From IMG/VR virus record IMGVR_UViG_3300036768_001066: 64,000 bases of DNA, one strand, 5' to 3'. This stretch comes from a virus. Taxonomy: Duplodnaviria > Heunggongvirae > Uroviricota > Caudoviricetes. Positions 34,452 to 36,328 of this stretch are shown here, one piece after another; the first letter of the stretch is position 1; each line of letters begins with the position of its first letter. The translations under genes were made by a program, and so were the position numbers. The notes beneath the pieces are model-generated. The model was not told the DNA's origin, made no database searches, and worked only from the letters and a program-made list of their open reading frames with translations.

Positions 34452-34904
34452 ATGGACAACACACATAATAAAATAGTGGAGGAGTTGCGTGCGAAGCTCA
34501 AGGAGCTCGCCGAACGCCAGGCCAATTCGAGATCGATCGATATGCTCGAGGGCTACGCTCGGGAAATATCGAACAACGCGTTAACGCTGAATATGACGGA
34601 CGTATCCGACGATGCGTACAGGATTATACGCGAAGCCAAGACCGCATTCGACAACGCGGTACAGGATCTCGAGAAGCTCACCAATATGCTAAACACAAAG
34701 AGGATCGGCGAGTATATTGTTTCCATCATTCTTGCCAAGGAGGACGGAACAAAGACTTTGGTCACACGTAATATAAAGCCGGAGCACAAAGATCCGGTCG
34801 TCGCGTACTTTGCGGACAAGCATGCGGTAACGCAAGCAGAGTTCTATGCGGTAACGCAAGCAGAGCTCGACGAGTTTGACAAATTTTTATCCACACTCCA
34901 ATGA
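34452..34904 (+). CDS. hypothetical protein
   Basis: 150-aa ORF with a 24-bp tandem duplication near the 3' end (AVTQAEFY / AVTQAELD). Confidence 0.45.
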   Translation: MDNTHNKIVEELRAKLKELAERQANSRSIDMLEGYAREISNNALTLNMTDVSDDAYRIIREAKTAFDNAVQDLEKLTNMLNTKRIGEYIVSIILAKEDGTKTLVTRNIKPEHKDPVVAYFADKHAVTQAEFYAVTQAELDEFDKFLSTLQ

Positions 34905-36328
34905 TAGTAGACGTACAAGTAAGAACCGAACAGATAGAGACTGAGAACACTCGGGGCATGCGCGAGCGCATAAAGGACTTGCGCATATCGTATTTCGACA
35001 AGAACGGAGAGATAGCGTACAAAGAGCTGCCATTGCAGCAGAAGGACGCGTTTACCTGGGGATATGCTCGCGGTACGGATAAGCCGGAGCCGGGCATCAT
35101 GTCATGGAATCTGCGTGCCGTCCGCAAGGAGCGATCTCTGAGGTTGAATAGGTACAGGATAGAGGAGATATTCTACGACAGAGCCAAGGAGCTCGAGGAG
35201 GTGTTTGAGTTCAACGTGCCGAAGAAATACATTATAGATATTGAGACCGAGGTGACCGACGGATTTCCCGATCCCGAGTTCGCCCTTAATAAGGTCACTG
35301 CAATATCCATAGTGAATTGCACCGACAAAGCCGTAACCGTTCTCGCTCTGAAGGAACTGACTGCTGCAGAACAAGATGCCATAGGGCGCGATGTCAACGA
35401 GCACTTCAAGAAGTTCAACGACAAGTGGGTGTTCAGGTACTTCAAGTTCGACAGCGAGTACGACATGTTGTACACGTTCTTCGCTAAGTTCATACACAAG
35501 ATGCCCTGCATCACTGGTTGGAACATACGCGGGTTTGACTGGCCGTACCTCGTCAACAGGTGCGAGCGATTGAAAATAGATCCAGCAATATCTTCGGTGA
35601 GCAATACCTTGATTGGAAAGGACAAGCTGCCGCAACACCGGCTCATAGTCGACTACCTGGAGATTGTCAAGAAGTGGGACCGCGTCATCAAGATTAAAGA
35701 GAATTACAAGCTCGACCACATCGGCGAGCAGGCGACGGGTATAGGTAAGATAAAGTACAACGGTTCGTTCAAGGACTTGTATGAGCAGGACTACAACAAG
35801 TTCATATTCTACAACGCGGTTGACTCCGTGCTCGTGTACTACATAGACAAGAAGCTAAACACTCTCACGACGTTATTCAAGCTCGCAGAGGTTGACCGCG
35901 TAGAGGTAAACAGGGTGTTCTCCCCGGTGTCTGTGCAGGAGGCTCTCATGGGCCGCGAGTTCTACAAGAGGGGCAAGATATTCGTGGAAGAGGAACGCAA
36001 CCAGGAACAGAAGCACTTTGAGGGCGCTTACGTTAAGGAGCCGGTTATCGGTTTCCACAACTGGGTTGCGTGCTATGACTTTGCGTCCCTGTACCCGAAT
36101 ACGATGATGCAGTTCAACATCTCTCCGGAGGCGTACAAGGGCAAGAGCCTCGACGGTAAACCTAAGGAAGGGGAAATCATTACGGCGAATAATAACATAT
36201 TCGACGCAACACAGGACTCCGTCTTGCGTACAATACTGCAGGATCTTTATTCAAAGCGCAAGGCCACCAAGAAGAAGATGCTCGACATCAACAAGGAGAT
36301 AGCCAAGCTCGAAGAGTATATTAAGTAA
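34901..36328 (+). CDS. family-B DNA polymerase, N-terminal portion only (3'-5' exonuclease domain plus motif A). Split or truncated gp43-like gene.
   Basis: Exo I YIIDIETE. Exo II WNIRGFDWPYL. Exo III YNAVDSVLVYY. Pol motif A DFASLYPN. The ORF ends about 85 codons after motif A, with no motif B (KxxxNSxYG) or motif C (DTDS) before the stop or in the following ORF. Confidence 0.8.
   Translation: MIVDVQVRTEQIETENTRGMRERIKDLRISYFDKNGEIAYKELPLQQKDAFTWGYARGTDKPEPGIMSWNLRAVRKERSLRLNRYRIEEIFYDRAKELEEVFEFNVPKKYIIDIETEVTDGFPDPEFALNKVTAISIVNCTDKAVTVLALKELTAAEQDAIGRDVNEHFKKFNDKWVFRYFKFDSEYDMLYTFFAKFIHKMPCITGWNIRGFDWPYLVNRCERLKIDPAISSVSNTLIGKDKLPQHRLIVDYLEIVKKWDRVIKIKENYKLDHIGEQATGIGKIKYNGSFKDLYEQDYNKFIFYNAVDSVLVYYIDKKLNTLTTLFKLAEVDRVEVNRVFSPVSVQEALMGREFYKRGKIFVEEERNQEQKHFEGAYVKEPVIGFHNWVACYDFASLYPNTMMQFNISPEAYKGKSLDGKPKEGEIITANNNIFDATQDSVLRTILQDLYSKRKATKKKMLDINKEIAKLEEYIK

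Follow-up and report, generated by a model that had tools for sequence, protein, structure and literature searches.

Distant genes for the two halves of a T4 gp43-like family-B DNA polymerase in a huge-phage genome

Several family-B DNA polymerases are built from two polypeptides. In the T4-related phages 25, 31, 44RR, 65 and 133, as described by Petrov, Karam and colleagues, gp43 is encoded as two products, 43A and 43B, with the break at the tip of the fingers (PMC3061061, PMC2988022). The 43A and 43B proteins of phage 25 are reported to co-purify and to be active (PMC2988022). An archaeal counterpart was engineered in the Pfu polymerase by a split within the first finger helix, at 467/468; its two fragments come together as a 1:1 enzyme with full activity (PMC3061061). 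In PhiKZ, the proteins DNAP-N (gp82) and DNAP-C (gp50) form a stable 1:1 complex that was resolved by cryo-EM (PMC13648687).

The locus considered here lies in a stretch of 64,000 nucleotides (hereafter the window) from a virus of the Caudoviricetes (IMG/VR record IMGVR_UViG_3300036768_001066). The window also encodes a UvsW-like helicase and a capsid protein of the gp23 type, a T4-like gene set. The gene at 34901-36328 is the front subunit of a replicative, T4 gp43-like family-B DNA polymerase encoded by two genes. We consider it highly probable (about 0.9) that the phage makes this enzyme from two separate genes, broken at the finger tip, whose polypeptides assemble non-covalently.

The N-terminal half and its neighbourhood

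The gene for the N-terminal half (N-half) and its motifs are as follows.

34901-36328, + strand: N-half gene of 475 aa, with an ATG start and a TAA stop at 36326-36328.
35228-35251, + strand: Exo I, YIIDIETE, residues 110-117; D113, I114 and E115 invariant in 30 homologues.
35531-35551, + strand: Exo II, GFDWPYL, residues 211-217; D213, W214 and Y216 invariant in 30 homologues.
35810-35830, + strand: Exo III, YNAVDSV, residues 304-310; Y304 and D308 invariant in 30 homologues.
36077-36100, + strand: motif A, DFASLYPN, with the first catalytic aspartate, residues 393-400; D393, A395, S396, L397, Y398 and P399 invariant in 30 homologues.
36221-36322, + strand: first finger helix, residues 441-474, modelled by AF2 as a helix with pLDDT 84-94; R453 and K457 invariant.

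The protein thus runs from the N-terminal domain through the 3'-5' exonuclease and the beginning of the palm, where motif A lies, to the first finger helix. Exo I-III, motif A and its fold all assign it to the gp43-like family B, and the same polypeptide has neither motif B (KxxxNSxYG) nor motif C (YxDTDS) nor a thumb. The exonuclease and motif A coordinates of the initial annotation were reproduced, as was the ending before motifs B and C; only its distance of 85 codons after motif A needs a trivial correction, to 75 from the end of the motif or 82 from its first residue. Pfam recognizes DNA_pol_B_exo1 (1e-16) and only positions 21-144 of 453 of DNA_pol_B. Among the PHROGs, phrog_2062 is matched at 4e-87 (positions 85-495 of 502) and phrog_262 at positions 109-494 of 856. 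The AF2 model of the isolated N-half has a pLDDT of 86 and ends in a 34-residue helix. Its best structural matches are to RB69 gp43 (TM 0.65-0.69 when normalised to the query, with E = 6e-23 at TM 0.69), and phmmer against RB69 gives 3e-32; the nearest solved structures are RB69/T4 gp43. The motif A strand falls below pLDDT 50 in this isolated-subunit model, which may reflect a shallow alignment rather than the need for a partner.

The surrounding features are the following.

33259-33996, strand opposite to the N-half: GIY-YIG/NUMOD3 endonuclease ORF, two genes upstream.
34452-34904, + strand: ORF of 150 aa whose stop overlaps the polymerase start (ATGA, 34901-34904), without Pfam or PHROG match, also called in L003.
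36349-36588, + strand: DUF4494-like gene of 79 aa (Pfam DUF4494, 4.7e-7), directly downstream of the N-half.
36589-36617, between convergent genes: 13-bp hairpin with a T-run after it; the fold is at -19.6 kcal/mol (z = -4.6), a stability that none of 200 shuffled sequences reached.

A dUTPase gene (34009-34449), the 150-aa ORF and the N-half form a tight co-directional block. The DUF4494-like gene keeps its position in relatives at at least 90%, 75% and 50% identity (L028, L022 and L004, respectively), and its product is 80% identical to the L022 copy. The hairpin sits between this gene and a convergent one on the - strand (36622-36957) and likely terminates the transcription unit to which the N-half belongs.

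The initial annotation proposed that the split arose from an ancient endonuclease or intron insertion followed by rearrangement, and pointed to the GIY-YIG ORF. The ORF is indeed where it was placed. Its position, however, is 5' of the N-half gene and away from the break, and L028, whose N-half is 98.7% identical, does not have it there; the split, for its part, is shared by relatives down to 30-45% identity. From this gene order and distribution the endonuclease appears to be a recent insertion unrelated to the split, and the proposed link is not supported. An ancient insertion at the finger tip, with later growth or rearrangement of the intervening DNA, would still be a plausible origin.

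The C-terminal half and the position of the break

The initial annotation suggested searching the rest of the genome for an ORF with motifs B and C and a KKRY motif, and such an ORF was found. The protein P0438 (C-half, 413 aa) begins with MFTYTT and contains motif B (KLTINSIYG), motif C (YSDTDS), KKKY and the thumb. It is a non-representative member of the P0269 cluster. Its position follows from an overlap between the window and L027, the Logan contig that carries the C-half.

62351-64000, + strand: right edge of the window, which matches L027 1-1650 at 100% identity.
72351-73592, + strand, in window-equivalent coordinates: C-half gene (L027 10001-11242), 8.35 kb beyond the window edge.

This overlap places the C-half start 36,022 bp downstream of the N-half stop on the same strand, outside the window, in agreement with the earlier statement that the halves are not adjacent. 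Genes for capsid, protease and ligase are among those in between. That both halves belong to one genome is judged from this 1650-bp overlap at 100%, from the identical size (373,759 bp) of the contigs bearing P0438 and the N-half protein P0151, and from their shared Logan sample (SRR11727984). The product of the window ORF 53380-54723, looked up in order to place the window on the JGI contig, was not on record.

Alignment of the junction with contiguous homologues puts the end of the N-half at the finger tip, with the first finger helix still included and motif B not yet reached; query residue 461 aligns with residue 468 of KOD polymerase and query residue 462 with residue 488 of T4 gp43. This is the same place as in the 43A/43B split of some T4-like phages. 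Both termini abut in the inter-helix loop with nothing missing and nothing duplicated. Together the halves amount to 888 aa, compared with 848-918 aa in contiguous homologues, and the C-half takes up the same family models where the N-half leaves them (phrog_262, positions 490-839; Pfam DNA_pol_B, positions 134-450).

Assembly of the enzyme and alternative readings

On the model of the phage 25 proteins 43A and 43B, the split Pfu enzyme and PhiKZ DNAP-N/C, each polypeptide would be translated on its own and the two would form a 1:1 active polymerase-exonuclease, with neither protein nor RNA splicing involved. The N-half supplies the N-terminal domain, the proofreading exonuclease, the motif A palm strand and the first finger helix with its Arg and Lys, R453 and K457 matching by position the residues that touch the γ-phosphate of the incoming dNTP in RB69 and Pfu. 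The C-half supplies the second finger helix with motif B, the motif C aspartates, KKKY and the thumb. Assembly would proceed through pairing of the two antiparallel finger helices, and the palm sheet would be completed by the motif A strand from the N-half and the motif C hairpin from the C-half.

The two proteins could instead work apart: the N-half would be a proofreading or repair exonuclease in its own right, the C-half would act by itself or with some other partner, and there would be no obligate heterodimer. In favour of this, the AF2 model shows a complete, well-folded exonuclease domain, and the genes belong to different transcription units 36 kb apart here and up to 280 kb apart in megaphages. 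Nevertheless, motif A, R453 and K457 are invariant in the N-half, where they would be useless without motifs B and C, and the C-half alone is without one of the two catalytic aspartates. Moreover, N- and C-halves co-occur on contigs, and those split family-B polymerases that were studied experimentally form 1:1 complexes. We regard independent function as very unlikely.

Rejoining of the halves, at the protein level through a split intein or at the RNA level through intron halves spliced in trans, is more improbable still. It draws on the relatives: ORF239 of the Tenacibaculum phage PTm1 is annotated as an 'intein-containing split DNA polymerase precursor', the C-halves of LR756500 and Lak-A2 have gaps at DTDS, and intein or endonuclease insertions break up the C-half of relatives a second time at motif C, which indicates that this phage group does use inteins in its polymerase gene. 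At the finger tip of the present pair, however, the halves meet exactly where contiguous homologues continue; neither terminus has extra residues relative to these homologues, leaving no space for an N-intein of ~100 aa or a C-intein of ~35 aa. The start of the C-half offers no Cys/Ser/Thr +1 nucleophile context. Rfam gave no match at E <= 0.1 in window positions 33000-38000, and in positions 8500-11500 of L027, upstream of and around the C-half, it gave no intron family and only a sub-threshold sRNA match. An intron or intein at the break was rejected on the seamless junction and these Rfam results.

The initial annotation left open whether the polymerase was split or truncated. That 34901-36328 is a truncated remnant or pseudogene, or a full-length gene cut short by a sequencing or assembly error, has nothing in its favour except the bare fact of a stop before motifs B and C, and hardly deserves consideration given that the missing part is intact elsewhere in the genome. 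As the initial annotation had noticed, motifs B and C are absent from 36349-36588, which is the conserved DUF4494-like gene and is followed by the strong terminator hairpin, and from the rest of the window. A profile HMM of six C-halves, run with all filters off, scored none of the window's 1746 six-frame stop-to-stop segments better than E = 3.1; tblastn with PAU gp110, PTm1 ORF239/241 and megaphage C-halves found nothing in the window. The sole match in the window to the KxxxNSxYG pattern, KESVNSEYG, is a chance occurrence at the C-terminus of a bestrophin-like ORF. The C-half is thus not to be found immediately downstream, and no indel near 36328 could restore a full-length reading frame, since polymerase sequence is absent downstream in all frames.

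An assembly artefact does not account for the stop at 36326-36328, since the same 475-aa protein occurs in independent assemblies and in relatives. The exact product is present on the 373,759-bp JGI contig and on a contig of the independent Logan assembly. Four more cluster members at least 90% identical, from other assemblies, are also of 475 aa, as are the relatives at 84%, 83% and 75% identity, and so all those at 75% or above. Against a relative at at least 90% identity, dN/dS is 0.046 for the N-half and 0.014 for the C-half; against the 75% relative it is 0.07 for the N-half. These ratios (0.05-0.07 for the N-half) point to strong purifying selection on both halves. The split part of the earlier alternative is therefore retained, a partner gene being present, and the truncated part is abandoned on the conserved length and low dN/dS.

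Distribution, meaning and comparison with known split polymerases

Most members of a large clade of uncultured huge phages have the split, which is the norm in this phage group. Among the best 120 clusters at 90%, 119 are N-half-sized, and among the window protein and its 150 nearest 50%-cluster representatives, 123 proteins end within 0-25 residues (median 3) of the N-half end. A matching C-half family of ~380-415 aa exists, and N- and C-halves pair on the same contigs in relatives, 20.5-21.2 kb apart in the close ones. In PAU, Chryseobacterium MA9V-1, PTm1, LR756500 and the present clade the two genes are collinear, with 2-36 kb between them; in megaphage relatives they lie 100-280 kb apart on opposite strands. 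On the 482-kb contig of a 50% relative from IMG/VR, the C-half was missed by the pattern scan.

The split is not absolutely fixed in this subclade: in P0001, the nearest of the 50%-cluster representatives (62% identity), the sequence runs through the finger tip without a break. A location of the contiguous P0001 gene in the C-half neighbourhood was rejected, because its upstream ClpP matches the N-half neighbourhood. In a neighbour-joining tree of 146 representatives, whose resolution is poor at such divergence, the 27 contiguous forms are spread over the tree and require 20 parsimony changes, compared with a mean of 25 for shuffled labels. Membership in the Jug (jumbo gut) phages was considered and rejected: these have a GC content of about 27-30% and genomes of 360-402 kb (PMC12880540), whereas the window has 45-55% GC, and only the size of the contig agrees with their description.

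The break could be maintained for altered nucleotide handling, e.g. of modified or unusual dNTPs, the engineered Pfu split being known to widen acceptance of γ-phosphate-modified nucleotides (PMC3061061), or separate transcription units could let the phage time replicase assembly. Either benefit seems unlikely on present data, and neutral persistence explains the same observations, a near-universal split and dN/dS below 0.1 in both halves. In practice, pipelines for phylogeny or completeness based on family-B polymerases should expect two genes in this clade, of ~470 and ~400 aa and possibly far apart, and should not score them as truncated. The family offers hundreds of natural examples of a replicative family-B polymerase that tolerates a finger-tip break with full genomic dispersal of its halves. 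The mechanism itself is not new, and the arrangement is already annotated in GenBank records and PHROGs.

The nearest described counterparts are the 43A/43B pairs. They belong to the same family and, like the present pair, consist of two independent ORFs without intein; the break separates the two finger helices and leaves motif A and the Arg/Lys helix in the first product and motif B in the second. In both, the remainder is a separate gene of the same genome. The 43A and 43B ORFs are near-adjacent cistrons, 2 bp to 3 kb apart, whereas the present pair is separated by ~36 kb, and the known spacing of at most 3 kb is extended by this clade to 20-280 kb. The split is also sporadic among T4-related phages, in contrast with its prevalence in the window's clade. 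Direct homologues, with 28-30% identity over 90-94% of the N-half, are the following: gp105 and gp110 of Sphingomonas phage PAU, those of Chryseobacterium phages MA9V-1/2, and ORF236, ORF239 and ORF241 of PTm1. Their N-halves (~487-497 aa) end at the finger tip and are followed on the same strand by a separate C-half, as in the present phage, but only ~2-2.4 kb away. PTm1 differs further in a second break, in the C-half at motif C, which involves a split intein and a gene for a VSR endonuclease. GenBank annotates the PAU and PTm1 genes as split polymerase.

The closest deposited genomes (32-40% identity) are LR756500-LR756504, LR745206 and the Prevotella Lak phages, whose records are without any annotation. 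Their first ORF is likewise of N-half size and their C-half lies elsewhere, at spacings from 10.5 kb to about 280 kb and in varying orientations, and the C-half is interrupted again at motif C in several of them.

PhiKZ DNAP-N/C resembles the present pair in its two dispersed genes and in the division of parts, the N subunit carrying the exonuclease and motif A and the C subunit carrying motif C. It differs in belonging to a divergent clade of family B, in its break inside a chimallivirus-specific palm-insertion domain and in its third subunit, Rhc. Assignment of the present pair to this type (group 1, chimallivirus) was rejected on its finger-tip break, its nearest structures (RB69/T4 gp43) and its T4-like gene set. 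The engineered Pfu split, albeit archaeal, matches the present one in its site, as given by the KOD alignment. Finally, the natural split polymerase of Methanothermobacter, also archaeal, has its halves 85 kb apart and is a precedent for long-range dispersal, with a break in the palm rather than at the finger tip.

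The N-terminal polymerase gene

The four family-B DNA polymerase motifs named in the initial annotation were all recovered from a single ORF (protein P0151, hereafter the N-half). This ORF does stop before motifs B and C, although it ends 75 codons after motif A and not 85 as had been stated.

34901-36328, + strand: polymerase N-half, 475 aa, TAA stop at 36326-36328; Exo I YIIDIETE (aa 110-117), Exo II GFDWPYL (aa 211-217), Exo III YNAVDSV (aa 304-310), motif A DFASLYPN (aa 393-400)
36349-36588: DUF4494-like ORF (Pfam), directly downstream
36589-36617: strong hairpin and T-run after the DUF4494-like ORF, facing a convergent gene (-19.6 kcal/mol, z = -4.6)

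As also claimed, the downstream ORF is not polymerase and no sequence with motifs B and C lies elsewhere in the window. An HMM built from six C-terminal polymerase halves and run with all filters off detected none among 1746 six-frame stop-to-stop segments (best E-value 3.1), and tblastn for the C-terminal half found no match across the window.

An artefact or a pseudogene was ruled out by the presence of the identical protein in independent assemblies, its kept length, low dN/dS and invariant residues. P0151 occurs on a JGI contig of 373,759 bp and, independently, on a Logan contig assembled from run SRR11727984. The 475-aa length is shared by four further members of its 90%-cluster, each from other assemblies, and by relatives at 84%, 83% and 75% identity. 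In comparison with a relative whose N-half is 98.7% identical, dN/dS is 0.046; with the 75% relative it is ~0.07. Thirty homologues show no variation in the Exo I-III residues, in motif A or at R453 and K457 of the last helix.

The partner gene and its surroundings

The search beyond the window for an ORF with motifs B, C and KKRY, proposed in the initial annotation, led to the C-half P0438 (413 aa), in which motif B (KLTINSIYG), motif C (YSDTDS) and KKKY are present. C-half probes revealed that standalone proteins of ~380-415 aa form a large family. P0438 belongs to the P0269 cluster and its longest contig is 373,759 bp, as for the N-half; it is also found on Logan contig SRR11727984_108134, from the sample that gave the N-half. 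Positions 1-1650 of the Logan locus carrying it (L027) are 100% identical to window 62351-64000, and the gene can therefore be placed as follows.

72351-73592 (window-equivalent), + strand: polymerase C-half

The C-half gene lies 36,022 bp downstream of the N-half stop and 8.35 kb past the window end, so that the polymerase is indeed split into non-adjacent halves. It is not truncated, since the N-half is intact and a separate gene encodes the remainder. Besides DNA_pol_B_exo1, the N-half matches Pfam DNA_pol_B only at positions 21-144 of 453, and the C-half covers 134-450; on phrog_262 (856 positions) the halves cover 109-494 and 490-839. The dN/dS of the C-half is 0.014. Two intact, complementary and conserved polymerase genes are present in one genome.

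Other genes were identified around and between the halves:

14456-16384: RNA-ligase/cytidylyltransferase fusion
28922-29839: NAD synthase
30830-33244, + strand: protein resembling the major vault protein (MVP-like), 804 aa (Pfam MVP_shoulder 2e-27, Vault_3 repeat, SPFH/Band 7)
33259-33996, - strand: free-standing GIY-YIG/NUMOD3 homing endonuclease ORF, between the MVP-like and dUTPase genes
37301-37708: HhH-GPD glycosylase
37857-38369: LemA
39091-39582: GGACT-family protein
39826-40638: bestrophin-like channel
41290-43278, + strand: prohead-protease homologue (Peptidase_S77), with about a dozen tandem 14-aa repeats (YSEYLAENLDKNIS) mid-protein
43297-44811: gp23-type major capsid gene, after the prohead-protease homologue
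59070-61088: NAD-dependent DNA ligase
62995-63717 (L027 645-1367), + strand: HNH endonuclease ORF, near the right window edge

The accessory genes (ligases, NAD synthase, glycosylase, LemA, GGACT, bestrophin-like) are typical of the huge-phage repertoire. The MVP-like gene neighbours the N-half in close relatives too, and the protease and capsid genes both lie between the polymerase halves. The LemA-to-SprT interval (window 38369-64000 plus L027 1-2260, compared with loci L028 and L023) spans ~26.2 kb here, roughly 15 kb more than the ~10.8 kb of the relative with the 98.7%-identical N-half. The HNH ORF, likely another mobile element, lies ahead of the SprT/topoisomerase II/RNase HII block, which in turn is upstream of the C-half. 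In intergenic DNA ahead of the C-half gene, Rfam gave a sub-threshold match to STnc430, an enterobacterial sRNA (L027 9184-9308, +; 37.6 bits, gathering score 47; E = 0.0012), which is probably due to chance.

The break at the finger tip

The AF2 model of the N-half (mean pLDDT 86, pTM 0.83) terminates in a single 34-residue helix (aa 441-474). Its closest structures are those of RB69 gp43, with a TM-score of 0.65-0.69 when query-normalised and ~0.38 when normalised to the ~900-aa target. In sequence searches residue 461 pairs with KOD polymerase residue 468 and residue 462 with T4 gp43 residue 488, which places the end region in the first finger helix. Pfu polymerase was artificially split in this same helix, at 467/468 (PMC3061061). 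Alignment to five contiguous homologues (P0001, P0012, P0015, P0016 and P0022) brings the ends of the two halves directly together in the inter-helix loop of the fingers, with nothing duplicated or missing.

The two polypeptides probably form a non-covalent 1:1 enzyme, held together by the antiparallel finger helices and a palm sheet shared by both subunits, by analogy with other split polymerases: phage 25 43A and 43B are active and purify together (PMC2988022), split Pfu retains full activity (PMC3061061), and cryo-EM shows PhiKZ DNAP-N and DNAP-C in a stable complex (PMC13648687). In the model of the N-half alone, low confidence is limited to aa 367-379 and 390-397, which cover the motif A strand; this is weakly suggestive of a dependence on the partner's motif C hairpin. 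Rejoining of the halves by splicing is unlikely, as the break has no extra residues to hold intein fragments and Rfam intron families gave no match at either locus.

Spread, origin and known systems

N-half-sized proteins make up 119 of the best 120 90%-clusters (45-100% identity). Among the N-half and its nearest 150 50%-cluster representatives, 123 proteins end 0-25 residues (median 3) from its end and ~26 are contiguous forms of ~750-980 aa. Both halves were found on common contigs of relatives, on the same strand and 21.2 kb apart in a ≥90% relative and 20.5 kb in the 75% relative; both keep the order N-half, DUF4494, HhH-GPD, LemA. Among deposited huge phages the separation is 10.5 kb (LR756500), ~101 kb (LR745206), 132 kb (LR756502), 221 kb (Lak-A2) and 281 kb (LR756504), and the two genes are often on opposite strands.

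In LR756500, Lak-A2, LR756502 and PTm1 the C-half has a further interruption of 0.24-2.2 kb, located exactly at motif C (DTDS), and the polymerase is therefore in three pieces. The PTm1 annotation gives a split intein and a VSR endonuclease gene at this point. The pieces map as follows:

L017 17464-17829 and 20001-20813
L019 2001-2231 and 3268-4059
L018 2001-2399 and 2640-3413
L002 9489-12295

The nearest 50%-cluster representative, P0001 (62% identity; L021 1320-3608, Logan SRR21621042_24520), runs uninterrupted through the finger tip; it occupies the N-half locus, downstream of a ClpP gene. Its gene terminates abnormally in the thumb, 8 bp short of the contig end. P0001 may represent a re-fusion, the ancestral condition kept unchanged or a gene that is broken at another point. 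Contiguous forms are scattered on the NJ tree (20 changes versus a shuffled mean of 25). One ancient split with re-fusions and recurrent splits are both compatible with this poorly resolved tree.

The GIY-YIG endonuclease had been suggested as the source of the split. Its ORF lies upstream of the N-half 5' end, away from the break, and the split is common to relatives at 30-45% identity. It is a recent mobile insertion unrelated to the split, since it is missing from the same MVP-dUTPase interval of the relative with the 98.7%-identical N-half (L028). An old insertion at the finger tip, enlarged later, is a plausible origin.

A 2026 paper on another gut huge-phage group records that DNA polymerase genes are frequently split (PMC12880540); membership in that group was rejected because GC is 27-30% there versus ~50% here. 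The arrangement is that of T4-like 43A/43B, a finger-tip split. It is already annotated in PAU, where 2.4 kb separates gp105 (487 aa) from gp110 (404 aa), and in PTm1, as ORF236, ORF239 and ORF241. It is also represented in PHROGs, where N-halves form phrog_2062 (502 positions) and C-halves phrog_1918 (382 positions). In contrast with T4-like 43A/43B, the halves are 36 kb apart here and as much as ~280 kb apart in relatives, and most members of a large uncultured clade have the split.
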